Below, piece after piece: positions 1-48,604 of a DNA stretch of 64,000 nucleotides. The notes beneath the pieces are model-generated. The model saw only the letters and a list, made by a program, of their open reading frames with translations. It had not been told where the DNA came from and did no database searches. Made by a program: the position numbers and the translations under genes. Numbering within the stretch: position 1 is the stretch's first letter; every line of letters starts with the position of its first letter. Origin of the DNA: Octopus vulgaris (Eukaryota); assembly GCA_951406725.2 (NCBI GenBank), contig OX597815.1, positions 94,674,001 through 94,738,000 on the forward strand. Reading direction: 5' to 3'.

Positions 1-1451
1 ATGGATTGAGGTCAAATTTGGAGAGGTAATACGTTCCCTAATGATACATCGTATGTCACAGCGATGTCCTTACAAGGCCATCAAGACATTAAGTTCCTAT
101 GACATTGAACACATGGCAGACATACATTTATACAGACACATATGCACTCACATACTCGCATGTCATCTCTCACACGTACCAAATTCTATACACATATACG
201 AGACTTCATCTGTTTGCTTATATCAAAGGTTAACGGTTGTAATTGTATATGCTTTGGTCAGTTCGTAGACCAGCATAATAAGCTGAATGTCCGCCTATGT
301 GTGCTTCAGTTAAGGTATATATTTATCACTGTTGAACTATAAATCACTATGTTTATCGCCAATATCATATACGACTAATTGTCCAGGTAATTAACACATT
401 GTCTTTTAGTAAGTTTCCTAAACTCTGCGTGTGTTTGTGTTTGTGTATGTTCGTATGTGTGTGTCTACGTGTACGTGTGTGCGTGCGTTTGTCTGTTTAT
501 GAGATGTAGCGTTTCAGCAGATGCATGAGTGAATGGTATGAACACAGGTGAAATGTATGAATGTGTAGTTTGTGAATGTACAGATTGTGTTGTGGCCAGA
601 GGAAGAGGATGAATGCAATAAAATACTGTGTCTATATGGTGGTGTGCATTAAGTGTAGGTGTTTGTATATGTGTGGTATAATACGTACATACATACATGC
701 ATATATATATATGCATATATATATATATATATGTACGTGTGTGTGTGTATAGACCTTATATAATTAGGGTGTATATACCAGTATATATATTGTGAGCACA
801 TATTTGAAGCTATTAGTTATGATTATGTGCATGCGTAACGTAATAAAAACTATACACACACAGACACACAAACACACAGACACACACACACACATATAAC
901 ATAGTATGTGTGCGAGTGTATGTGTGTGTGTGTTGGTGTAAGCTGAGGTGGCGTATGAATCAATGTGTAATATATACATGTGGATGCCTAGTAGGTGTTC
1001 CATGATACAATCTGCTAACCTGCAGTCAGTTTCCCAGTGTGTCAGAGACAAAATAAATGGCATTCATGACAATAAATGCCATTTTTACTGTACAGGTGAA
1101 ATGGCTTCTGATTAGGAAAGAACGTTGGTTGAAGCTAAAGAAATAGTAGCGTTAAGTATGTAACAGCAGTGTTAGAAAATTCGAGAGCAGGGCAAAAACC
1201 CGATTTGGTGCAATTAGCGTAGAACAGCAGGGTCTGAAAGAGCCTGTCTAAAGAATGGGGCGGGACATTTATGGAATGGCTGGAGGCAGCAACTCTGAGG
1301 AAGGGAGGTTGAAAATCCGTTTAAAAGGCAAGGTGAAACATGAATAGGCAAAGCAAGCAGTTAACGGTGGGGCGCAACACTTTACGAAAGGGATTAGAGC
1401 AGAGTTACAGGCATGAAGGAAGATGCTATTGCCACACGCATCAACAAATTT

Positions 1452-11840: not shown

Positions 11841-12423
11841 TCTACATAATCTAGCATTTTGAGCATCCCCGGAATGATACCCTCCATTGGATCATTTTTG
11901 TTCTTATTTAAATCCAGATTAACTCTTGTTGAGTAGAGTGATTATCAAATATGTTTTAATGTTTGAGCAGCAAACGTCTAGTTCCTTATTTTTGTTTTAT
12001 ACAATACTATAGGATTGCATTAATTAATGAACTCTCCCAATGTTGAGAAGGAAGGATACAATCTAAGTATATTTTGTTATTATTTCTGTCACCTGTGAGG
12101 CTTCCTGGTTGGCTCGTTACAGTTGAGATATTACAGACTGTCCGAATTGTCCTTGTCACGTAATCAGTTACACTCCAGTGACACGTTATTCACTCTTGAT
12201 TTGGCTGAGTTACTCAGAATCTCCACGTCACTGCTCAGCATGCTAGAATTAGCACTTAAAACAATTCCTTCAAACGAACACTATCTTCTTAAAGATAGGA
12301 AGTACATATTGTTGATGTATAATTGAATGTATATTGGACCGAATGTTCAGATAGTTATTGTTAGAACACCTTTGATAATAGCATTGTTCTGCCATCTCTA
12401 ATAACAAACAATAATAATTGTTT

Positions 12424-12650
12424 ACTATAGGCACAAGGGGCGGAATTTTGTACCTCAACTGGTACTTAATAATGGTTTAAAATTTTGGCGCATAATTTCG
12501 AGATAGGCGCAAGTCAAGTACATCGATCCCTGTGCTCAACTAGTATTTATTTTATCGACTCATAAAAGATGAACGATAAAGTTGACTACGGCAGAATTTG
12601 AACTCAGAATGGAAAGATGGACGAAATGCTGTTAAGAATTTTACCCACCA
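12424..12650 (-). mobile_element. tRNA-derived SINE family A, diverged copy
   Basis: Reverse complement of the family core (ttctgagttcaaattc...gtcaactt...ttcatc...gtcgataaaataa) seen in better copies at 33764 and 47836. Confidence 0.8.
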
Positions 12651-13582
12651 GTTCGACTATCTGTAGTATATTGCAGGATATATTATTTCTTGTCCATTAA
12701 AAATTATGTATAATTTCTTACAAGAATAATTAAGGCGGTTGATAACTGTCATTTCCTACAGTGCATTTTATTCTCTGAATAATCGTTACATTTGGCTCGT
12801 TGCAGTTGGGTTGTCAGAGTCAATAGCGTCTGTCAAGTAATCGGTCCCACATCAATGATAATGGTTTTGTGTAACACGCTAGAACAAATTAACTGCAGTT
12901 TTGTTATCTTGAAGCAGTGGGATAACTGTCGCAAACAGAATTGTAATGTTTTAGTAAGGCAAGTAAGTCTGCGAGGCTATTGCTATGTATTATTGTTTTC
13001 AGTTGCGGGCAAAATGACTCGAAATACCCGGTGTTCAGAGACACAATAAACCCAATAATGTTGTTGTTTTAATGCAGATCTTCATACGAGGCAGGGAAAC
13101 CCAAGTTATTTTCATCGCTATTTGCATAATTTTAAATGTTATATCAAAATTGTGTTCTAAATGTCATTTTAAATTGTTATCTGAATCAATAACTTGCATG
13201 TTTTGTAGGAACAAAAACATTAGAAGAAATATTCTTTCGTTATGTATTTAAAAAAAAAATATTTCAAAAGAATCTGTTTAGGTTAATAACCCATGCTGAA
13301 ACGAAATTATCATCTGCATCATTTTTGGGGGCCTAATGGACATTCGCTATATTTTATCATTACTTCGACAAGGATTTTTTTCTTTCTTTCCTCTATTTTA
13401 AAATTTTCATGGAATAGTTGATATCTTCTAAATTTTTTCATCGAAAGGTTTTTTTTTTCACTCTGACACATTATTATATTTCCTGTGCTGTTGCTATCGA
13501 TTCGAAAGATTGTGTTAGCTGCTAAGTACTAAGAACTGGTATTTCTGCTTCTCTTATTTGTATTTTTTAAATTTATAGTATG

Positions 13583-13584
<2 letters not shown>

Positions 13585-13670
<86 letters not shown>

Positions 13671-13700
13671 CAAACGCACACACACACACACATATATATA
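13585..13700. repeat. (CA)n microsatellite
   Basis: Direct tandem repeat. Confidence 0.97.
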
Positions 13701-13899
13701 TAGAGAGAGATAGAGAAATATAGTGATGCAAGTAAAGGGTTATGGGCTTGATATATAAAATATACATGCATATATATACACATGTAAATACTTATAGGGA
13801 AATATTTATATATAAAGAGGAAGAACATTTATATTTATATATGTGTGTGTGTATGTGCGTATGTGTGTAGATACATGTATAGAGGTGCATATATATAAA

Positions 13900-13942
<43 letters not shown>

Positions 13943-15755
13943 GTATGCATGTATGTGTGTGTGTATATGTGCGTGTGTGTCTGTACACAAATAAATTTAC
14001 ATAGATCATAAAATACTGAGTACTAAAGAGAGAATGCATAGACTTCTAACTCGACAGTTATTTCTGGGAGCTCGGAATTATGTAATATTCTTAATATTGA
14101 TTATTTGCATTTGGAACGTGCAAAAAGTCATAGACATGCACCAGCAAATGGTCGCATATAGATATCACCATAAGACCAGCTTCCTTCATCAGAAGAAGGA
14201 GGCTTTTGCGAAGTCTTGCTCCGGTGTCTCTATATGTCTCTATATTTATACCAACTTTAAATTCAATTTTGTTCTACATGTGTGAAAAACTCAAGGTAAC
14301 AATAGATACTTGATTGAAATTAGAACTTTGGGTGAAATGATTGAATGCAGCCATAATAGATTCGCCCAGTTGACTGCTTTTTAATAAAGGAATCCTGTAA
14401 AACAATATAAAAATAGATTTAGTCTTAAGTTGGGAGAATATTTAAGGTAATGTGCGATGATAGTATATTCAATAATTTCGAAGTCAGCTCTATTACTCTT
14501 TATAACATTTCATAATTTGCAGAGTTTGATAATGCAAGTGTATGAAAGTTTCTGTGATTCACCACTAAATACAAATTGTCTTTACATATTTGTTCAATTA
14601 GAAGCGGAGTAATATAAAACATTCTGATGAACCGCAATGGCCCTCGTAATGAAATGTCGTATGTCTTAGTTATGCCTATTTCATTTCTTGTGTTGAAGTT
14701 GGTGATGTCAGTAACATAGCAATTGAGAAACTAATATTAATACTGTGGTGTATATTTTGAACCAACTCTTCATTGCTAAACAGTGCATTATCTACTGAAC
14801 GCATTGAAGTAAAGAAAGTTATCGTTAAAACTAAAATAATATGAGTTACAATTTTGCCATATGTAAATCTACATTGTAATTTAAAATATTATTTTCACAA
14901 AATCCTTTTCCTTACATTTGTTTTAATAGTTACATTTTTTTCAAAATTTCGTATAAATAAATGGTGGAAAAAAATCAAATTAAGCAGTTTTCTGAAATAA
15001 TATTTCACTCTAACTAACTTTAAACGTAAATTGTACAATACAGTTATTGTGAACTCGATTGAGAAATAATATTTAAAATTATCTATGAAGAAATCTAACA
15101 ATTGCTTTCATATTCATTTGTAAGGAATGGTTATTTCTTTTTCATACTGATTATTGTTTTTTGTTTGGATATTAACATCAATTCTTCTTTTCCTGAGAAT
15201 TCTAAAACAATTTTATCTTGCCATCACGTTTTCAGAGTCGCTATAATTTCCTCTTTGCATCGTTTAATCTTGCGAGGGCTGGAAATTTATAGCCGGTTTG
15301 TAAAAGATACTCATCATTTCCAGCAGACAAATTTTAAAATTATGTCTTTTTGCAATTTTTTTCTCTTTGTTTTGCAGGGATTTCATCATTCTATTTTTTT
15401 TCTTTTGTTTGAAAATGTCCTTATCGAGAGTTTTATTTGTAAGCAACAAATAATATCGTAGTGATGTTGCTTGGCATTTTATCATCTCAGTGTTTTCTCT
15501 CGCTTTCTCCTATTTCTAATTTCGTAGATTGTTCTTTTCAAAAGACACCATATTCTTGTATCATAAATACACGATATATCAAGGCGTGGATAATGTTTAT
15601 CTTGTAAAGACATCTTAATGCTTTACAGCGCTTTTAAGTACGGGTACATTATTTATTTAGGTATGTATGTTTCAAGCTACATACTTACATATTTACAAGT
15701 CTATTCAAAGTCACTCGCTATGTATACATAAGTATACTTAGGCCTGACAACTCAC

Positions 15756-15787
<32 letters not shown>

Positions 15788-15844
15788 GCAGACACACATA
15801 TTAGGTTTTATGTACATAGACGTTATTTAAATATGAGTGCACAT

Positions 15845-15951
<107 letters not shown>

Positions 15952-16960
15952 AAGAAAAATAAGTTGGCTAGCAGCGAGCTGTTTTGCCTCATACCGAAGG
16001 AATTAGAAATGGCAGTCAAAGACCGTTTTTTCCATTTCTATAAGTGGAGATTCCCAAAACGAAGGCCCTTGCGGCTCACATGTGGCAAATATACGAATTC
16101 AGTCACTTACCGTTAATAGCGAACACGGTGTTTCTGGATCACAAACATATAAAAAATAGGGGAGTTTGAATTCCTTCTTCAGCGCTATATTCGTTAGCTT
16201 TATCAAATGCCACCGCTTCAAAATACAACTATGAACTTTAATGTAAATCGCTGGTATATATGGGTTCTGAATAATCATGCCAAAACGATGCCTATAATTA
16301 CTGAGATTATAATGCTTGGATAATTATTATACATATTTAACTAAATTATCATAGGTTGGCAAAATATTTAGTTATAATGTCAGAAATAATATCAATAGAG
16401 TTAGAAAACTATGAGACAACTAAGTATACATAAAAATAGATAAGGAGAAAAAAGGATAGAGACACAAAAGAAGAGAAAGGAAAGGAACTCCGAAAATAGT
16501 GAAATATAAATCCTATGACCGGCAACGAGAAAATATTACAGAGAAAATATAAGAATATAAATAAAAATTCATTGGGCTATAACGGTTACAATACAATAAT
16601 AAAGAAATCGTATATTAATGAGTGAGTATTATGACTATATAAATATCATAATAAAGTAACTAAATGAAGAGAGTAAAGCGGGAACTTTCAAGAAGGGTAA
16701 GGGAATTCGCGTTTATGCGAAGGCTGAAGAAGGGAAGGATAAAAAAGTCACGGTCATATGAAAAAGAAATGACAAAACCGTATATATTGATAGCGCAAGG
16801 AAATCAGCGACTCGCTTTTTAAATATAGTTAATTGTAAATGATTCAAAAGTTTCGAGTTCTTTATCCGATAACGAAAAGAAAAAAAAAAGCAAACAAACA
16901 AATGCAGCATGGAAAGTGTTTATAAGCCATTTAAAAACAAACAAAAACCGTTAAATTTAA

Positions 16961-17011
16961 TTTGTCAAAATATTTTCGTCGCTTTCAGACCGCGACCTGT
17001 TCACTGACAAA
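16961..17011 (-). ncRNA. Putative minimal type-I hammerhead ribozyme (G3-C8 core variant, palindromic stem III)
   Basis: Minus strand reads UUUGUCA-GUGAACA-G-GUCGC-GGUCUGAAA-GCGAC-GAA-AAUAUU-U-UGACAAA: 7-bp stem I, CUGANGA-type box with C3G/G8C covariation, 5-bp stem II, GAAA box, 6-nt palindromic stem III and a UUU cleavage triplet. Confidence 0.7.
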
Positions 17012-17287
17012 ATTCCGTGCTGCATGTGAGAAAGTAACAGTTAGTTCATGATATATATATGTATGTACGTACGTACTTATGTATATATGTGAGTATTTAG
17101 GTATGTCAATGTGTAGACGTGTCTGTGTCTGTGTATATGTGTACGTTCATGTGGACGTATGTTTACGTACTGATATATGTGTCTGCTCAAGTTGCATATA
17201 AGACTGTTACACTCTCGAAGGTTGTTTGTGTGTGTGTATATATATACAAACACACACGCATATATACATACACACACACACACGCAC

Positions 17288-17336
<49 letters not shown>

Positions 17337-17632
17337 TGTTCCTCTCACCACCATCTAACGGTGAATGGATACAACCGCTTAGCTTCATACATGCAAATAT
17401 AAACCTACCTGTAAATACGTACAAGCACGCACAATCACATAAGCAAGTACACACACTCACATATATACATATAATCTTAAAGTATACACATATATACGCT
17501 TATCCATCTACACATATATATGTCACTAATTTCGCAGACAACGCTTAAAATTAAAAAAAATATTTATATTTTTTTTATTTTCATTAGAATTTGTTTTTTA
17601 TTATGCATATACATATACATATATATGTGCAT

Positions 17633-17665
<33 letters not shown>

Positions 17666-17908
17666 TATATATATATACATATCCACACATACTCATAAGT
17701 GCATGGATGTACACAGCCATACACACACTCACTCACACAACTGATACATACACACACACGCTAAAATACACATACATCTACATATACGTACATATATATT
17801 AATCTAAGTACACTCATGCGATTATATATAACTACATATATGTATTTCAGTATCATGCATCTCAACATGTATGTATGGATCTTTACATGTAAATCAGAGA
17901 AAGGGTGA

Positions 17909-19800
17909 TTATAGATGGGTAGTCCCGTGTGGAATCTGGGTGAAACTCCATTCGGATTTACGGTTGAGTGTGGGTTTATATTCCTGTATACAGACAGCTT
18001 CAGTGACTTGCGTTAGCAATGCATCAGTGTGATGTGTAGATAAGATGTCTAACTTAAGTCTCCCTAAGGAGCCATTATGGAAGTCTACAGCATGCTGATA
18101 GAACAATGGAGTTTGATTTTTTTCAACGTAGTTGTCCAAGTGTTCTTTGAACTTGTCATTGGTTCTCCTAGAAGTCTCACGAATATGACTCTGGGATAAT
18201 AGCGCAATTTCCTTCTTGGCACTTAATCTGGTATACAGTGTTTTTCTTTTTGCAGTTCGTATGTGGGTTTGTGGAACATACTACACAATTATTTTGACAC
18301 GTGATTCACTCACGTGTTTTACTTAATACAAATTTGATAGTCCTACCTGTCTTTTCTACAACTTATTTTTATTTCTTTTGTTGGTCTCTCTCTTTCTCCA
18401 ACCTATTTCAGAATTGTTGCGGTATAGTGGGTATATGCCGTTTTCGTCATCTCTTAGAATGCGTCCGAATCTTGCTTTTGCTCCTTTGTACACTCTGATT
18501 CTATCGCACTGTCTGTAACCGGAACGTTGCATTCGGAATATGTAGAGCTGGATGTGCTTGTTTGTGGATATGTTCCTCATTACTCTAAGTCTGCCACGAG
18601 TCACTACGAATTACGCGTGGATAAGCCATATATTTACAATAGTTTAAGTAGAGTAAACAGGGTTTAACAGTTCCATTAAACATAGTATTTTCTATCCATA
18701 GCTCAGATATGTCGTCAACATATCGAGTGTACATAGCTAAGTGGATGTTACGGGTCGCTAGGCACTACTTAAAATGTCTGTCTCACCATACCATGAAGAG
18801 GTTGGCAACATCACCGGCGATCCCTACACCAATAGCACCGCCTTTCATCTGTTTATATAGTTTATTATTAAACTTAAAAATATGGGTTTTAAGTGTAGTC
18901 CTAAGGCTGACACCGATAGCGTGTGCGACAGTAGTTTTGATGTCGTGTATTTCTGAAGGTGGGTGGTCTGGTTTTGTTCAGCCATGCCAGCGTTCTCTGT
19001 GGGTTTTTTTTTGTATGCTGAGATAATGCTAGATAATGCTACCTCGTTTGTTACGGGTGGGACAAGCATATACCAGGTTACCTCATGACAGCTATTCGTC
19101 GGCAGAAGTTAGGATCAGGAAGAGGCCTAGTTCATATACATCCACATTTTTAAATATCATATTACTCTCACAAATTAAGTCTATGCATTTTTCAATAGCA
19201 AAGTCTATACATCAATGGAAGGATATAGTGATACCACATCCATGCTACATACGATGTGGTCACTTAGGTCGCATGTATTGTTGCATTCCAAGATTCTGCT
19301 AAGGAGGTCTTCAGTACTATCACATACATCTGTATATAACTCTATTAAGGGTCGTAGGAATTGTGAGAGAAAATATGATATTTTGTGGTTGTTAGCATTG
19401 TTGGCACCACAAACGGGTCGGGTAGGTAACCCAACTACATGATCTGTGTAGCTTTTATGATCTTTTCGAAGGTCATATAGGAGTAGGATTTCATTGTTCG
19501 TAGTTGTGAAATTGTTTACTGTAGGTTTCTCAGACTGGAGAATGATACACCACATCCCCATGGGAGCATTAAGGACTTTTTTTCATTTTCAGTGTATTCG
19601 AGTGTAGTTGTTTCTATCAGGTCTCTGATGTGTAGTTTCAGGTTCGAAATAGGTTGTCAAAATAGTTTGATAGGTTTTCAACAGACAATTTCAGTCGGGA
19701 AGCATTCAATTTCTCTACCTTTGATACGATATTTTAAGACCTTTCTTAATTTTGGTGCCAAGATCATGGGTCTTATTTTTTGAAAAAATCAATTTACTAT
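17909..19800 (-). mobile_element. Decayed Penelope-like retroelement (RT plus C-terminal GIY-YIG endonuclease), Naiad-like
   Basis: Minus-strand motifs LYDLRKDHK..PTRPVCGA, SMDVVSLYPSID, KQMKGGAIGVGIAGDVANLFMVW*D, RYVDD (YVDD at 18711-18722), Cys linker CQNNCVVC..NC, then VYQIKC...YIRETSR and HAVDFH...EAVCIQEYKPTLNRKSEW. Multiple stops and frameshifts. Confidence 0.88.
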
Positions 19801-21787
19801 ATATTCATTGAGACACTATTATCTTAGCGAACTTTTATCTATTTCTTTTCACCCCTCTAATTTACATTCCTATCTCCATCCGCATATGTCTATATATCAT
19901 ACTGTTTTCTTATACATTCACTTTTGTATCCTCCCTTATATCGCGCCATAGTCAGAACATTTCTTTGCTAAATTTTAAATATGTGTTTAAGTCTTAGAGT
20001 TTCACCACTTATTAACTCTATCTGACTAAATATTCAAACACAATCCATTTCGGATTATATCTAAATCAGTCTTTCTTTCTCTAAGAGAGCTCTGAAGGGG
20101 TTTTGTTTATAATCATAGCGAATCGAGTACCGACAGGATGATCCCACACAAGTCTCTGGTGGGGAGTATGTATTAATGCAGAGGACATAATTAGGGAATT
20201 GAACAATTCTGATGTTTTATTTGTTACATAGATGCTTGGGACTGCCTGTATTCGCGTGTCTTTCAATATAATGTAAATTTTCTGATCAAATCTCCAGATC
20301 CCATCTCTTGGGAGTTTTTATTTATTATTCTCTTGTTCAGGCTGGTATCAACCATATCAAATATATCAATCTGAGGGGTCCTGTGAGTCATGGGTGTTAC
20401 AACTCCTTGCCAGTCTAATTTATGAAAAGAAACAATTTCTATGTTACAATATTATTATTGTGTTAGCAATAACTTTGCATTTAAATAATCAGTTAAACTT
20501 TTATGAGGAAAACGTGACCGACGTATTTAACGTACTAATTATACTGTTCTATATAATTATATTGAAAAACCTTAAGATGTTGACTAACTTAAATATCTTT
20601 ACAAATGTATATGACAAACATAAATACCTTCTCGCTTAATAAATATTTTCTATTTCTCCATATGAAGATGTAAGTTCCCTCTAAATTGCTGTTGATATTT
20701 TCAGAGCGGATTCATTGATTTTCAAAAAGTTTGCTTAATATAACATTCCTTAAATTTTTATAGACTCGGGTAATTATGATAAAAATACACTGTTTACTTA
20801 TATTTAATTATTGCAATGTTATTTCGACCGTTTGCATTTTGTAATTTATATTCTATTCATAGCTTCAATTTCTCGTCTTGGCTGTGTTGATACAATAATT
20901 GCAATAAAAAAAAGAAAATAAGTTTTCTTACATTATATTCTTTACTGTCTGAGAAGCAAAATACAATAAAAATATTGTGATTGTTTCTCGCTTGCTTTAC
21001 TGTTTACTGAAGAGAAAAAATAACGGTGATTTGAAAAAAAATGGTTATTTTGAGAAGAGTGATATCATTCTGCATATCATCAGCCTTTTAATTGTTTCGT
21101 TTCATGAAGTTAAAGAATCTATTGTGTCTTTTAGTGAATGGCAAATACATTAACGCGGAAAAAGATAAAGTGAACATCTTTTAACTTTTAAATATTTAAA
21201 AATTTTGTTTATTCCAAGAAAAAAGTCGCCATTTCATATACATTTACCTTCTCCATGTTTCTTCGCCTCGTTCGTTATTACAATGAAATACTTCTACAAT
21301 CTTTAAAGAGTCATGAAATAAAAAGAATGGATGACCACGGTTAGAAGACTTTTGATTATGGTCCTTCTTGACCAAGAATGACTTGGGGTTAAAAAAATAC
21401 GTATTATTTCATTGATTCTATGTCTAACTTCTTAAACATAGGTACCAGCTGCTATAATTAATCTGTTTGAACGGAGAACCAATAACAATATAAAAAATAT
21501 AATAAAGATCATAATGACTCTTCTCCCCAGAGACAACAAAATCATAAATTCCATTCATTCTTACTAAGTTATGGCGGTTTGTGTTGAATTACTTCATCGA
21601 TGTAACTACACCAGTGTTCATGGCGATTTCTACTTTTTCTGGTCATTTTCCCTTCTCCTTTCCGAAAAAGAGCTATGCTCAAAATGTCAAAACCTCTCAC
21701 TTTCCCTGAGTGTCAAACTAATACATTCTTTGTGCACGTCCTCTTGTCTGTTTTGTTCATTTTGTTATTCGTTTATTTGAACTGACT

Positions 21788-21788
21788 A

Positions 21789-21883
<95 letters not shown>

Positions 21884-21899
21884 ATATATATATATATAT
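21788..21899. repeat. (TATC)n plus (TA)n microsatellite
   Basis: Direct tandem repeat. Confidence 0.97.
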
Positions 21900-22475
21900 G
21901 CATTATATTATATAACAGAATGTGTGTGTGTTGGTGTGTTTGTGTGCGCGTGCATATGTTTCTTATAAATTCGAAAACTGAGTTGCCGATCTTGACGTAT
22001 AAGGTATCAAAAGATTCAGTAACTTTCGCCTACCAAATAAAGTATGTTTTTTGAACAATAACTACTTTTTACTATAAAAGTAATCTCAAAAACCATGTCG
22101 GGTCGCACAATTTGGAGGTCTTTAGCCAAAGGCTGCAATTCTGAATAATCTTAAAACACTTGGAGTTTTACCAGGGAATGAAAATTCGATGATATACCAT
22201 CAACTTTATTCCTATTATTTAGTAGATAATCTTTTAATGTGAAGTATGTTTGACTGTTTTGTTTAGCCAAGAGTTGTCTCTGATGTAGCAGGCCCGTCGC
22301 ATAGTTTTTACCCCGAAATACTGAACATCTGGTTCTTTCTTTGAATGAAAGCGTGTGTTTCAAGCGAGATTTGGCTGGTATTAGTAGAAGCTCAAGTTAT
22401 CACAGAGGCGCCACTGTATGTGAGTTTTGTTCTGGTGAAAAAGATACTTTTTCTCAGAATATTTTGCACAATTAA

Positions 22476-22630
22476 GGCAGCGAACTGGCAAAAACGTTAG
22501 CACGTCGGGCGAAATGCTCAGCGGTATTTCATTTGTCTTTAAGTTCTGATTTCAAATTCCGCCAGGTATTTGTTGTGTACTGGGGTCGATCTAATCGACT
22601 GGCCTCCTCCCTTAAAATTTCGGGCCTGGT
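22476..22630 (+). mobile_element. SINE family A, internally deleted copy
   Basis: Head ggcagcgaactggcaaaaacgttagcacgtcgggcgaaatgc, B-box-like ttcaaattcc, tail ctggggtcgatctaatcgact. Confidence 0.85.
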
Positions 22631-23088
22631 ATATAAATACATTCGGCAGATGGCGGGGAGGTCAGCCATAGAAACAAAGGAATCTTCGCACTCTTTTGGT
22701 CAGTAGAGGTCAAATGCGTTTACTTTTTGAATTTCTGAATTCAGTTGTGTTGTTGCAATAAAATGTGTGTTTACGTATTTGGGTAATACATTAAAGATTT
22801 TAAGTTTTCTTGAGATGTTCATTTGTCCATCCAGTTGGAGAATACATTAGGACTTTTGCAATGAAAAGGTTGTTTACATTTTCGAATACTCGGGGAGAGT
22901 CAAAAAGAAAAGAATACAAATTGTAGATAGTAAATTTTAAGATTTATTAAATATAGTCTTTTGTATGACCGCACAAAGAGAAATGGTAGTGCTCTTAGAA
23001 TAAAAAGGACGTTGATGTTTACATTTTCGAATACTCAGGGAGAGAGGAAAGGATAAATAGTCACACATTAGTTGTAGATATTAAGGTT

Positions 23089-23185
23089 TATCATCATCAT
23101 CATCGTCATCATCAAAGGATTGTCCTAGGGCCAACTCGAATTACATTGCGGGCCATTTTAATCACAGAAACGATTTTGAGGGCCG
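23089..23185 (-). mobile_element. Retroelement 3' end with (GAT)n tail, RTE-like
   Basis: Minus strand ends ...ggccctaggacaatcctttGATGATGACGATGATGATGAT; short-tandem-repeat tails are typical of RTE-clade LINEs. Confidence 0.45.
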
Positions 23186-23189
23186 CTTC

Positions 23190-25860
23190 TATACTTTACT
23201 GTTTTGTTACTGAGTATGATGTTTTCTTGTTTTCATGCTTTAAGACAAGATTTAACATCCAGTCATCAGAGTTTTTCAAGTAGGTGTCCAGGCCAGTTGT
23301 GGCAATCTTCATTGTTAAAAGTCTACGGCCACCCTCTTTTTTTGGTAGGTAAAGACGTTCTATATTTGCCTTAGAGTATTCTATGCATTGTCAACAACTT
23401 TCATATTTTTCTGCCAAGGTTACATATTTCAGTAATTGACTGGTTAATAATAGTGAAACTGTAAGTCACGACCCGTATAGCTAAAGTATTGATCGCTTCA
23501 ACCCTGTTTCTTGCATTCAGCTCTGTCTTGAGTATTGCGCTTACCCTGCTATAACATTCTTTTCCTTTCTTTTGCCTCTTCACTGAATGTTTTATTCTAT
23601 CACCTTGAAATACCCCCAGGTATTTGTAGTTCTCCGCTGGTTCTAACTCCCTTATGACATTCTGTTGGTCAAGATTAACGTTGGATATTTCTATCATTTT
23701 AACTCTGATGAAGGTAGCCTTTGCACATTTATCGAGGCTAAATTCCATCCCGATGTCATCACTGAACTGTTTAGCAATTGCTAGTAAGCTCGTAGGTGTT
23801 GGTCAGTATGGCAAAGAGCTTTAAATCATTCATGTAAAAGAGATGATTTATATTTTTATCAAAAATGTTATACCCATATTGTACTAGGCTAGACAAAAGA
23901 GCGGTGATAGAGAGTCACCCTGGAAAATACCACATGAAATTCTTATATCTCCGGCATTGAAAGGTTCATTGTCACTGTTCAAAGTGGGTGTGTTTCTCCC
24001 TGATCTCATACTTACAAACAAGAAGTTTCGCAGAGTAGGTGCTATTTTATATATTTCCAGACATTTCTCAATCCAGCTATGTGGTAGACTATCAAAAGCT
24101 TTTTTATAGTCTAACCAGGCTATTGAAAAGTTTTTGTGTTGTTTGTGACAACCTTCCAAGATCATCTTATTGATGAGTAGCTGCTCTTTACAACCACAGG
24201 ACCCACGATTACATCCTGTTTGCTTATTAGTGAAGATGCCACTTTCTATTGAAGAAGTATAGGTATATTCAATCAAGACAGATGTTAGTATTTTATACAT
24301 TGTTGTTAAGCAGGTAGTCAGTCTATAATTTTTCGGTTCATTTGTTTCTTCATTTTATGGAAGTAGGAATGTAACATAATTAACTAGCCAAGGGGGAATC
24401 GTACTAGCTTTTGAAAACCATTGTTGTAAAGTTTTGATAGCAGTTCATGACTCTCAGGGGAGGTATTCAATCAAAAGTTAAGAATTTTATCCTTTCCTAG
24501 AGACTTCCATTTGCTTGATTTCCTGAGAAAACCTCTACCTTGATACACTCCCATTTTTGCTGTTCCAAGAAGTCTAAGCCAGTAGATGCTCTATCAATCA
24601 AAGGGGCCCTTTTATTGCGCGTTTTCTCTTCTGACAAAATTTTATTCCAAAATTGTTGCACTTTTTTTTTCATGGGACAGACTTTACTGTAACTTGTATT
24701 TTACCTATCTTCCTATATTTTATTTTGTTTTATTTTTGAAAATATTGTCTTTGAAGAACATAACGCGCTTTTCAAACCGTGCTATGCAGGCAGCTTTAGC
24801 AGATAGTTTCTATGGTGGTATCGATGTCAAATATGGTTTTCATATTATACTTTTTCTTTAATTTTCCGATTTTGTTGATTTGATATTCTTGTCAAATTTA
24901 AAGTGTTTTTAAACATTCTATATCGGAGTTAAGTAACTGAATTTGGGGTTGAATACGTGCTTGCCAAGTAAGCTCTTTGTGGGAATGTTGTTGTTTTCTA
25001 ATCTTTTCACCACATATAATTTTTGAGATCTTTGCAGATGCATAGTACAAGCAATTGAGATCTGTACTATCAACATCATTAGCTGAAATTATATCCTTAA
25101 GTGCAAGGGAGATTTTAGCAATTACTTTCAGTTTTTTTTAGAGTTGGCAATATTTGGGAGAGTGTCACGTTCATTCATACTGTTTTTTTTAATTTTCAGC
25201 CATCATGGTTTAATTTTTTAGATCACCTAGTTCAGTTGGGTCAATTTCTGTGTGACTTTCTTCATCTGTTTGATTTTCATCTGCCTTGGTGTTTATGGCT
25301 CGTTCAGAGAGTATTTAACTTTGCTTATAAGTTACAGTGACTCTTTCTATCATTATTGTATTTTCATAAGAGCTGGGTTGGTTTGTAATTATTTCCTCAG
25401 TAATATCTTCTTTAGCTGCAACTTCTTTCCTTTTATCCCTTATTGATTGCTGAGTTTGGTCAATCTCTAATTCAGATAGTAATTTCTTTTTTGGCGTTGG
25501 TAAGTTTGTTACTATCTATGTAGGGTCTTACTTCAAGGTGCTTCTGTCTCCAACTTACATAGGGTGGTTCAGTATTAGATTTATTTGTGGAGAAATACAT
25601 GACATGATAGAAGGCCTTAAGAACTCATTTATTATCTCCTCTTGACCATTTTTCATTCTTTTTCTTTTGGTTATTTGATGAAGAGCATGGATGGCCATCT
25701 GTTGGAATATTCCGGTTGTGGAATACTTCCAGCTCCTGTGTTTCGAGAAGATTTGAACCAGTAACCGATTTGTCGTACTCAGTCTGGTCACTCAGTGGGG
25801 TGCATTGGGTGCATTTGATGACCCGGGTGACGGCCGATTCCGTGTGTATTTTGCTTTGAT
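23190..25860 (-). mobile_element. Old R4/Dong-clade non-LTR retrotransposon (N-terminal region plus RT), pseudogenised
   Basis: ORFs 23884-24300 (KQTGCNRGSCGCKEQLLINK, WLDYKKAFDS, GIFQGDSLSP) and 23401-23748 (FSLDKCAKATF, YKYLG, LNARNRVEAINTLA) are colinear with the 43237 ORF; frameshifted coding-like sequence continues to about 25.8 kb. Confidence 0.92.
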
Positions 25861-34869: not shown

Positions 34870-35424
34870 CTTTCTGCTATAGACACAAGGCCTGAAATTT
34901 TGTCGGAGGGTAATAGTCAATTACATCTACTCCAGCGTTTCACTGGTAATTAATTTACCGACCCCGAAAGGATAAAAGGCAAAGCCGACCTCGGCGGAAT
35001 TTAAACTCAGTACATACAGGCAGACGAAATATCTATTTCTTTACTAACCACAAGCGATGACAAACAAAGACAGTCAAACGGATTACGTCGATTATATCGA
35101 CCCCAGTGCGTAACTGGTACTTATTTAATAGACCCCGAAAGGATGAAAGGCAATTTGAACTCAGAACGTATCGGCAGACGAAATACATATTTCTATTTCT
35201 TTAATACCCACAAGGGGCTAAACACAGAAGGGACAAACAAGGACAGACAAACGGATTAAGTCGATTTCATCGACCCCAGTGCGTAACTGGTGCTTAATTT
35301 ATCGACCCCGAAAGGATAAAAGGCAAAGTCGACCTCGACGAAATTTGAACTCAGGATGCAGTGGCGGACGAAATACCACAAAGCATTTCAACCGGCGTGC
35401 TAACGTTTCTGCCAGCTCGCCGCC
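34870..35424 (-). mobile_element. SINE family A multimer (three stacked core units)
   Basis: Repeated gaccccgaaaggat.aaaggcaa / aactcag / cagacgaaata units; head at 35400-35424. Confidence 0.88.
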
Positions 35425-42719: not shown

Positions 42720-43193
42720 ACCGATGCATTACAAGGCAGTGGCTCTCATGACTTCTGATCATAACTGATTGGAAGTGTTATTATGTACATGGTTTTCCTT
42801 GATATAAAAGATGGGTTACAGCAAATATTCTGTTCGGTACCACAGATTTGTTCTCAGTTGCTTGACCTTAAACAGTTAAGCATGTCTTTATTGACTGATG
42901 ATATGTGTATCTCTTATCACGAACAGGACTAGTGGAGGAGCATCATAGCCATGGGGTGAGTGGACTTCTTTGAGCGGGATAGACTACTTGATGAGAAGAA
43001 AATTTCTAACTGGGCGCCACTTGCAAAGTCATGCGTCATTTATCTTGATATGAGATCAGAATGTCATGCATATATGATTGTGATGCATGTACCTGGCGTA
43101 CCCTTATCAGATTGGTAGTCATGACGGGTATATTGGCCTTCGTATATTTGTGCCATCTATGTCACTTTGATGGTACTCATTACTCTCTCGTTC

Positions 43194-43221
<28 letters not shown>
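42720..43221 (+). mobile_element. Non-coding retroelement 3' region ending in a (TAA)n tail, probably an RTE-type LINE 3'UTR
   Basis: Non-simple sequence ending ...ctctctcgttc(AAT)n; resembles a common octopus repeat (from memory). Confidence 0.55.
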
Positions 43222-43225
<4 letters not shown>

Positions 43226-43236
43226 CATATGCATTC

Positions 43237-44676
43237 ATGCAGAAGAACGATATTTTCCCCATTGAACAAAAAGGGTGCCGCCGAGGCTCTTACGGATGCA
43301 AAGATCAACTGCTAATTAATCGTATGATCCTTGAGAACTGTCACAACAAGCGCAGAAATCTCAGCTCCGCATGGATTGACTATAAAAAGGCCTTCGACAG
43401 TATACCGCATCCATGGATCTTGAGATCGCTGGACGTCTTCAAAATTTCCCCTGTGTTTTCAAACTTCCTGAAGCACAATATGTCGTTGTGGAATACGAAT
43501 CTCCAATTATACCACTCTAATGGAGTACTTGCCTCAGAAAATATAAACATCGACTGTGGAATTTTTCAAGGTGACTCACTTTCACCTTTAATATTCTGCA
43601 TAGCCCTAATACCCCTTACAAGTGAATTAAACAGAACAGGGTATGGGTATAAAATTGCCAATAAAAAAATAAGCCATCTATTTTATATGGATGACTTAAA
43701 ACTCTATAGTAAAGACAATAATGAACTTGAAGGCCTATTGCGCACTGTGAAAGCATTCAGCGATGACATCGGGATGGAGTTTGGACTTGAGAAGTGTGCC
43801 AAGGCCACTTTCCAGAAAGGGAAAGTGAAGACCACAAATTCAGTCGTGTTAGATGTTGACACAGTCATAAGAGAGCTTGAGCAAGAACAAACATACAAAT
43901 ATTTAGGGATAAATGAAGGCTCTGGTATTCAGCATGCAAGCATGAAAGAGAAGATCAGGAAGGAATGTTATAGGAGAGTTCGTGCAGTCCTGAAATCTGA
44001 ACTAAATGCACGTAACAAGGTGTTAGCTATAAATTCCTTAGCAGTTCCAGTTGTTACTTATAGCTACTATGTGCTGAACTGGAATATGAGTAAAGTAAAG
44101 AATATAGAGATGAAAATACGCAAGCTGCTGAGTTGTAATAGGATGCACCACCCAAAGGCAGACGTAGATCGCCTTTACCTTCCCAGAGCCCAAGGAGGTC
44201 GAGGCCTGATCCAGTTTGAACTAGCTTACAAAACAACCACAATTGGACTGGCCAAATATCTCGAAATAACGAATGACTGGATGCTAAAGCTCGTGGAAAA
44301 TCACGAGAGACGAAAGAAGCTTCATTCTATCAGAATGGAAAGCAAAAAATGTGCTATTGATCTCGTGCAGGATACCCAAACTGAACAACCCGAGGGAAGT
44401 ACAGCAACTATTGTTGCAAAGAAGGTAAAAATAATGGCAACGAAAAAAGCGCACGAGCAATTGGCTGATAGGTGGGAAGAGAAACCTCTGCACGGCAAAT
44501 ATGTGGCCCGCAGCAAACAAGCTGATGTGGACCACCTAATCTCTGGATGTAAAGTCTTAGCACCAGTGGAGTATAAATTAAGACATGACAGAGTTGGCCA
44601 ATATCTACACTGGCTAATAAGTCGGCATTACAATATCAAAACATTACAATATCAAAACTTCAGTTACAATATGTAA
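43237..44676 (+). pseudogene. Dong/R4 reverse transcriptase ORF (truncated; zinc knuckle deleted)
   Basis: EQKGCRRGSYGCKDQL, WIDYKKAFDS, GIFQGDSLSP, HLFYMDDLK, YKYLG, HPKADVDRLYLPR..GGRGL, RHD. Confidence 0.95.
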
Positions 44677-47835: not shown

Positions 47836-48064
47836 GGCAGCGAGCTGGCAGAAACGTTAGCACGCCGGGCGAAATGCGTAGCCGTATTTCGTCTGCCGTT
47901 ACATTCTGAGTTCAAATTCCACCGAGGTCGACTTTGCCTTTCATCCTTTCGGGGTCGATTAAATAAGTACCAGTTACGCACTGGGGGCGATATAATCGAT
48001 TTAATCCGTTTGTCTGTCCTTGTTTGTCTTCTCTGCATTTAGCCCCTTGTGGGTAGTAAAGAAA
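47836..48064 (+). mobile_element. SINE family A, near-consensus full-length copy
   Basis: ggcagcgagctggcagaaacgttagcacgccgggcgaaatgcg...gagttcaaattcc..gaggtcgactttgcctttcatcctttcggggtcgattaaataagtaccag...agccccttgtgggtagtaaagaaat. Confidence 0.93.
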
Positions 48065-48604
48065 TTAATAATTATTATATTATTTATTGTTGCTTATTCA
48101 TAGGACAATCTTGATCTAAGCATATGTTAAAATATATTACAGTTCTGGCAACTGCATCTGTTCTCTCGCTCAGTGTATTAAGCCCACATTAATCAATATA
48201 GTTCCATTTTTAAAGGGCTGTGTTTTGAGAAAGCGACAGATGAAGAGAAAGAGAGAGAGAGAGAAAGAGAAAAAGAGAGAGAGAGAAAGAAAGATAAATC
48301 TAACTGGTTGTTATATCTAGTGAGTTTAGGTATCATATAGAAGCAGTGTAGGTAAGGCATCTGTATCGAGTACTATATTGTAAATTGACTGTTGCGATCA
48401 TTCCATAGGTATAGTGAAAATACACGCACACAGACACATACATATGTATGCATATAGACACATATACATATAGATGAACGGATACATATATGTGTTTGTA
48501 TATGCTTGTGTGTACATATACATGTATATACATATATGTACATATATGTACATATTTATGCATATGTATATGTCTATTATATACATACATACATACATAC
48601 ATGC

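Follow-up and report, generated by a model that had tools for sequence, protein, structure and literature searches.

A short minus-strand segment within a 64,000-nt stretch of the Octopus vulgaris genome (assembly GCA_951406725.2, contig OX597815.1, positions 94,674,001 to 94,738,000; the whole stretch is hereafter called the window) had been described from its letters as a minimal hammerhead ribozyme in which the two nucleotides of the tertiary pair 3:8 are exchanged, so that G3-C8 stands in the place of C3-G8. This locus raises the question of whether such a motif is a genuine hammerhead, to what kind of element it belongs, and whether RNA cutting by it plays any part in the spread of that element.

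The hammerhead motif and its fold in the window

Every part of the minus-strand fold that had been described could be located by sequence, as listed below together with the upstream arm of the inverted repeat that surrounds it.

16961..17011, minus strand: minimal type I hammerhead motif, based on sequence, fold, coordinates and cross-family pair counts
17011-17005 and 16967-16961, minus strand: arms of stem I (7 bp)
17004-16998, minus strand: hammerhead core GUGAACA, with G3 at 17004 and C8 at 16999
16997, minus strand: bulged extra G after the core
16996-16992 and 16982-16978, minus strand: arms of stem II (5 bp)
16977-16974, minus strand: GAAA
16974-16969, minus strand: palindrome AAUAUU, the 6-nt stem III region
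16968, minus strand: U17, with predicted cleavage between 16968 and 16967
17013..17025, minus strand: upstream arm of an imperfect inverted repeat, whose predicted pairing partner is 16914-16902

The minimum-energy fold of the 132-nt RNA (-34.3 kcal/mol, z -3.07; none of 200 shuffles was equally stable) contained both hammerhead stems, with mean predicted pair probabilities of 0.86 for stem II and 0.6-0.85 for stem I, and the two inverted-repeat arms were predicted to form an outer stem enclosing the hammerhead and a start codon. A G3-U17 wobble, which does not belong to the active form, was also added by this fold. The stem III palindrome was a perfect one of six nucleotides, all A-U, with a computed energy of -0.2 kcal/mol as an isolated duplex. 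Both the fold and the covariation described below agreed with a minimal type I hammerhead, in which stems I and II surround the core and the motif is open at stem I. Across 46 distinct family copies, selected independently of the ribozyme sequence, the nucleotides U4, G5, A6, A9, G12, A13 and A14, the pair A15.1-U16.1 and H17 were each kept in 44-46. The canonical letters C3 and G8 were replaced by G3 and C8, and the 3:8 pair was a Watson-Crick G-C in 35/46 copies and G/G in 5/46.

A hammerhead descriptor matched only once in the 64-kb window and not at all in 200 first-order Markov controls of the window. The Rfam hammerhead models, which had been suggested as a check, gave no match in a search of 12000-24000 with E up to 10, where weak microsatellite-driven matches alone were returned. 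With its core reading GUGAACA, the motif is missed by a CUGANGA search, as expected.

The host element and the ends of its copies

The preliminary description had placed the motif in a non-autonomous unit lying about 0.9 kb downstream of a Penelope-like element on the same strand. The neighbouring element proved to be real and to be the same element as the unit, which is its 3' pseudo-LTR and not a free-standing unit. The parts of this decayed element are as follows.

16896..17027, minus strand: 3' pseudo-LTR, running from the putative transcription start to the nearer of the two 3' end points of the family, as placed by copy-end mapping
16896..16930, minus strand: first ORF codons repeated in the pseudo-LTR, with the ATG at 16930, based on continuation into the ORF in tandem copies L104 and L109 and on the N-terminus match to a sister family
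17027, minus strand: putative transcription start, the A of the family's AG, suggested by an extra G before this base in other copies; the window copy has a point change at 17026
17028..17908, minus strand: microsatellite-like 3' UTR of the element, which aligns with the same region of other copies
17909..19783, minus strand: 5'-truncated broken ORF (reverse transcriptase, zinc-finger linker region, GIY-YIG endonuclease), recovered by tblastn with a 1,025-aa family member in six pieces of 61-74% identity spanning 19783-17936

The DNA joining the ORF to the unit was conserved among copies, the 3' UTR of the window being 69% identical to that of L033 over 855 columns, and it ended in a branch-point-like, pyrimidine-rich stretch (17046-17028, minus strand). 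Among 30 loci holding the endonuclease end of the ORF, the window included, 12 had the unit on the same strand at a distance of 0.4-1.3 kb downstream when flanks of 1.5 kb were considered. The other 18 comprised two with an inverted copy upstream only and 16 without the unit in the 1.5-kb flank, and longer flanks of these 18 revealed the unit in six more, giving 18/30 in total. A protein search further identified a young subfamily with open frames of up to 1,025 aa, and all nine of the young long-ORF loci fetched carried GUGAACA approximately 1.0-1.7 kb beyond the ORF. The repeat also preceded the ORF and ran into it in L104 and L109, and the repeat-ORF-repeat tandem of L104 placed two motifs 4.26 kb apart. 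The last 35-95 nt of the repeat encoded the protein N-terminus, 41% identical to that of the sister family (E 2e-23); pseudo-LTRs that include the first codons are likewise found in rotifer elements (PMC3846280). The linkage to the ORF, the conserved UTR and the continuation of the repeat into the ORF start thus identified the unit as the 3' pseudo-LTR of the adjacent element. The association of a G3-C8 hammerhead with Penelope-like elements was therefore borne out, and its assignment to a non-autonomous family was not, the unit being a pseudo-LTR whose family encodes a protein.

The 13-bp inverted repeat said to bound the unit was present, with 12/13 bases matching in the window copy and a 2x2 internal mismatch in most copies, but it was not terminal. 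On one side the element continues through the 3' UTR into the ORF, and long copies extend far past the upstream arm; on the other, 15 of 30 sampled copies run about 60 nt beyond the downstream arm (16914-16902), which corresponds to codons 6-10 of the element ORF. This organization differs from that of a non-autonomous inverted-repeat (MITE-like) element.

The single ORF combines a reverse transcriptase with a C-terminal GIY-YIG domain, as in endonuclease-bearing Penelope-like elements, and the pseudo-LTRs holding the ORF start, the optional tail and the tandem and inverted arrangements are also those of Penelope. The GIY-YIG domain was detected in the 1,025-aa member with E 1.6e-5, above the cut-off. 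Reverse transcriptase motifs were seen in the family protein and its relatives carry PF00078; Pfam RVT_1 gave no match to the family protein itself, and a Pfam search with seven short broken fragments of the window's element returned nothing significant. By eye, the CX3CxxC linker was spaced as in the Nematis rows of the supplement of PMC8557442, and a CX2-5CxxC linker with a short spacer before the endonuclease fitted the Nematis type. The best named relative of the family protein was an Octopus vulgaris protein (57%). A piece of P0095, an annotated Octopus vulgaris 'dynein regulatory complex subunit 6-like' isoform, was 66% identical to the element protein and would represent either an exonised fragment or a gene-model error.

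The family comprises thousands of copies: the DNA search gave 1,985 candidates for the unit, and an exact 23-nt core pattern and a 30-nt downstream pattern gave 3,099 and 3,679 matches, respectively, with none for the reversed controls. Most genomic copies were short solos. Copy ends were mapped for the first 30 copies that the ORF-start pattern recovered on one contig, none of which extended into the 3' UTR. Their 5' ends fell within -2..+6 of one AG (equivalent to 17027) in 16 and further downstream in 14, never upstream, and none lay within 2 nt of the predicted cut (+59). Their 3' ends were divided equally between +144..151 (15/30) and +202..207 (15/30), mostly leading into TA-rich sequence.

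The C that precedes the AG in the element was absent from 176 matches, and in 72 of the first 100 of these the base before the AG was G, versus approximately 21% expected from the window composition (p 6e-28); this upstream C was present in 111 matches. At junctions without inversion, G preceded the AG in 12/14, and the bases before the extra G (-2 and -3) were not conserved. The extra G suggests that a capped transcript served as the template of the solo repeats, in line with LINE-1 insertions, in which an extra 5' G has been read as a mark of the cap (PMC11702581). A search of the literature on Penelope-like elements with an untemplated cap-derived base, judged by the listed records, found nothing on point. 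Copying of solos from the 5' end of a capped RNA would also account for the many solos that span one inverted-repeat arm to the other, the pattern noted at the outset. Another possible reading of the same 5' point is a 3' splice site, because the AG follows a branch-point-like, pyrimidine-rich stretch and the intron of the Drosophila virilis Penelope ends at its hammerhead (PMC4209133; PMC2377424).

Two other sources of the extra G were considered and rejected. Fold-back from the tail predicts further matching bases upstream, and the next base was G in only 1/27; a short spliced exon was dismissed on account of the non-conserved bases -2 and -3. Separately, six loci (L067, L069 and L087-L090) were found to hold one head-to-head inverted pair whose junction and flanks are common to all six, indicating that the inverted-pair structure itself had been duplicated.

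Variation at positions 3, 8 and 17

As judged by comparison of copies and relatives, G3-C8 is the family state and the swap a real natural covariation. G3-C8 was kept in all nine young long-ORF copies, and a search of 8 of 24 assembled-contig runs showed the repeat under four organism codes, with no other letter at core position 3 or 8 among the matches listed and with no RNA end, splice joint or circle. A sister family, 52% identical in protein and with intact 1,312-codon frames, carries the motif at the same place before the ATG, with C3-G8, the same bulged G and one stem II pair changed on both sides. Its pattern, with C3 fixed and position 8 free, gave 4,320 matches, and G8 was found in all 30 loci fetched. 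Older relatives read CUGAAGA (516 matches), which differs from GUGAACA only at positions 3 and 8. Among nine loci of metagenome relatives, the motif lay behind the ORF in three and was missing, or the flank was lacking, in six; those at 45% and 29% identity showed C3-G8, and the one at 46% showed U3-A8.

When ten motifs were aligned, 88% of the cells paired and 8/12 pairs changed on both sides, which none of 500 shuffles reached, a count that is not a probability as the rows are related and hand-picked and one (L243) is misaligned. The 3:8 pair was C-G in five of these motifs, G-C in three, U-A in one and unpaired in one, the misaligned row. Compensatory changes at 3:8 and in the stems, for the latter of which the preliminary description had proposed a check among copies, were thus seen between families. 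C3-G8 was most likely the ancestral state, because it is found in near as well as distant relatives; in the family's own context it did not occur among the first 100 of 144 matches.

Some relatives deviated elsewhere in the core. In the pseudo-LTR of a distant relative (L242:2485-2545), the U3-A8 core occurs together with C9. The sister family (L112:7720-7782) is very young, with many near-identical copies and a long asparagine-rich insert within its 1,312-codon frame; the youngest form of its hammerhead has C9 in place of A9 together with U17, and its older members have A9 and C17.

Position 17 was U in 45 of the 46 copies with G3. Among the 43 C3 relatives that could be parsed it was C in 31, namely 19/30 in one set and 12/13 in the other, the CUGAAGA relatives, of which 13 of 30 fetched loci fitted the pattern. 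A 3:17 pair that extends stem I was computed at -3.5 kcal/mol with G3-C17 and -1.3 kcal/mol with G3-U17, and a G3-C8 mutant has been stated to be more active when C17 is absent (data not shown in PMC3884650). U17 may hence be a permissive change that avoids the inactive G3-C17 Watson-Crick pair.

The core had been expected to be better conserved than its flanks among copies. Within the family this was not the case (0.963 for the core versus 0.960 for the 3' flank in the 46 copies), as expected for copies that decay after insertion. Between subfamilies the expectation held weakly: when majority letters were compared between the young subfamily (14 copies) and the old one (32 copies), 0/42 core and stem positions differed versus 9/72 others (p 0.013), and against the spacer alone (4/49) the p value was 0.08. 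In this comparison two one-base insertions fall at stem edges, and the old set was chosen on the leader and the 5' arm of stem I. Loop II was changed at 4/8 positions.

Exact copies with G3/G8, in which 3:8 is unpaired, numbered 144, equal to 4.6 per 100 of the G3-C8 count and about twelve-fold more than the reciprocal C3/C8 single mutants (11 of the first 100 of 110). They terminated ORF-bearing insertions in eight rows of the tree set, and two inverted pairs carried G8 in both arms, indicating that the broken pair was copied. As many as 45 of the first 100 G3/G8 copies lay on contig C16 at about 0.6-10.6 Mb, many of them ending long insertions with different flanks, and the same contig holds 14 of the 30 endonuclease loci. 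This clustering may reflect a burst confined to that region, or long copies may have persisted better there. In a midpoint-rooted tree of 44 ORF 3' ends (one locus dropped as too short, 19 rows less than half filled, bootstrap not settled), most G/G copies nested among G-C copies. AU tests on the 30 rows with known state, with groups named after a tree had been seen, rejected a single clade for the eight G/G rows (p 0.009) as well as for the 18 G-C rows (p 0.002). The broken pair is therefore probably derived, having arisen more than once or through recombination, yet it was still copied. The converse idea, that G3/G8 represents the ancestral intermediate of the swap, was rejected on the grounds of this nesting and of the AU result for the G-C rows.

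Predicted role of the ribozyme and its known relatives

On this evidence, the pseudo-LTR carries a family hammerhead with G-C at 3:8 that would probably still cut RNA weakly, either as a dimer or with the element protein, and whose cutting is likely dispensable for copying. Minimal Penelope hammerheads have been reported to cut under these two conditions (PMC4209133, PMC11167929). For PAc, the Poseidon element of Anolis carolinensis, it has been described that cleavage needs protein, that the C3G/G8C double mutant partly restores cleavage, that catalytic mutants still insert, and that reverse transcription starts at two internal sites, along with a tail (PMC11167929).

We infer the following course of events. 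A capped transcript would start approximately 23 nt upstream of the core, and the reverse transcriptase of the element would begin at either of two internal sites within the first ORF codons, on a TA-rich target. Copying from the 5' repeat would run to the cap and yield the many solo repeats of 145 or 205 nt, often with an inverted partner. Long copies like that of the window would arise when a tandem transcript made by read-through is copied from its 3' repeat. The swap would preserve the 3:8 pair, and U17 would avoid the inactive G3-C17 pair. The ribozyme may trim tandem transcripts or, because the predicted cut lies upstream of the start codon, limit translation, rather than make template ends; the absence of any copy beginning at the cut among the 30 and the insertion of 144 unpaired G3/G8 copies count against a needed activity. 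We also put forward, more tentatively, that the family is a natural lineage of active G3-C8 hammerheads made workable by U17 and missed by descriptors, that its thousands of copies, with a cap-derived G and two fixed priming points, record the copying of solos from the 5' end of RNA that was capped but not cut, and that its ribozyme acts as a brake on the element and not as a template maker.

The most serious alternative, which we nevertheless regard as unlikely, is that the motif is a catalytically dead relic, its swap fixed by drift and its stems kept as a protein-binding site or a start-codon structure. Such a relic would agree with the insertion of G3/G8 copies in numbers and their repeated origin (AU p 0.009 and p 0.002), with the absence of insertions starting at the cut site (0/30), with the A9C change in the youngest form of the sister family as a sign of a relaxed core, and with the dispensability of cleavage in vitro (PMC11167929). 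It would, however, have to account for two transversions that restored exactly a known tertiary pair, for three different Watson-Crick pairs at 3:8 in one group of relatives, and for 42 ribozyme positions that stayed unaltered between the young and old subfamilies while loop II changed at 4/8, all of which is hard to conceive without selection on the catalytic fold.

The opposite extreme, an efficient and essential ribozyme that cuts tandem transcripts into unit-length or circular RNA templates for insertion, follows a model proposed in PMC4209133 and would suit the long stems I and II and the tandem copies, which put two motifs on one RNA. It is nonetheless improbable, as the 5' ends of insertions gather at a point 59 nt upstream of the predicted cut, with an extra G, and never at the cut (0/30), and as G3/G8 copies were mobilised. 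Still less credible is a separate non-autonomous 125-bp unit with terminal inverted repeats that merely lies near a Penelope-like element. The prevalence of short solos (0/30 into the 3' UTR), many running arm to arm, gives that impression, but the solos are the element's own repeat, half of them extend 60 nt past the downstream arm, and this arm is ORF sequence; no solo subfamily with changes of its own was seen among the loci examined, and for the window copy, which is joined to the ORF by a conserved UTR, the idea is already contradicted. Chance resemblance to a hammerhead, to which the missing Rfam match might point, is the least plausible of all, given the 0/200 Markov controls and the positional homology with canonical motifs at the same place in sister families.

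The closest known systems are the hammerheads in pseudo-LTRs of metazoan Penelope elements (Cervera and de la Pena 2014, PMC4209133), with which the octopus family shares the location, the bulged base before stem II, G10.1-C11.1, the short palindromic stem III, the thousands of mostly solo copies and the common U17. The text of that report names only U3-A8 as covariation, whereas the octopus family has G3-C8; the rows examined in its Fig. S3 all begin with CUGA or UUGA, with no G3-C8, and 'Octopus' is absent from the part of its supplement searched. PAc (Frangieh et al. 2024, PMC11167929) likewise combines a hammerhead close to where the ORF begins with AT-rich targets and with a pair of internal 3' end points that give rise to the 'tail'. 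Its C3G/G8C double mutant has the core of the present family, the swap being engineered in PAc and natural here. The two further differ in that PAc is cut 26 nt inside the ORF, whereas the cut predicted for the window family precedes the ATG by about 37-55 nt, a distance that varies among copies, and in that the present element, unlike PAc, has a zinc-finger linker of the Nematis/Neptune type. A compensatory 3:8 change is also shared with the natural core variants of Perreault et al. (2011, PMC3088659), where it is U3-A8 and not G3-C8.

The Nematis clade (Craig et al. 2021, PMC8557442) shares the C-terminal GIY-YIG, the CX2-5CxxC linker, the short spacer from CxxC to the next cysteine, the (TA)n targets, the tail and the inverted repeats, the window element being assigned to it by motif comparison alone. 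Animal non-LTR retrozymes (bioRxiv 10.64898/2026.07.22.740005) resemble the family in that short non-coding copies akin to pseudo-LTRs carry a type I hammerhead; they form head-to-tail tandem arrays of hammerhead units, whereas neighbours here are inverted pairs or ORF-spaced repeats, and no head-to-tail array was found among 110 matches in 90 loci.

Hammerheads in pseudo-LTRs, natural U3-A8 pairs and G3-C8 as an engineered partial rescue are thus already known. No natural G3-C8 hammerhead was found in the literature searched, outside which lies a large 2017 survey that may contain such variants. That survey, by Lunse et al., reportedly covered about 150,000 Penelope-associated hammerheads. 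A search for hammerhead ribozymes together with octopus listed nothing on this element. G3-C8 would complete the natural series of 3:8 covariation (C-G, U-A, G-C) within one group of related elements, and would exemplify a class of motifs missed by CUGANGA descriptors and Rfam. The genome moreover offers a ready-made comparison between young long-ORF G3-C8 elements, the very young C3-G8 sister family with A9C and natural G3/G8 copies, which allows one to ask directly if Penelope hammerheads are active and if their cutting has any bearing on spread.

Several other repeats were observed in passing, although the search for repeats within the window was swamped by microsatellites. Three loci (L106, L116 and L120) contained a different dispersed repeat, whose minimal hammerhead is canonical (CUGACGA, with a stem II of 4 bp); by eye, window positions 21650-21700 (plus strand) may hold a decayed copy of this repeat, strict patterns giving no match there. 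A 501-codon frame at 43171-44676 (plus strand; Pfam RVT_1, E 6e-24) belongs to a different retroelement, and broken reverse-transcriptase-like frames occur at 23196-24700 (minus strand), with motifs that we take to be typical of RTE-type non-LTR reverse transcriptases. Finally, 35195-35424 and 47836-48065 form a 230-nt inverted pair, 87% complementary, which probably represents two copies of a SINE-like repeat.
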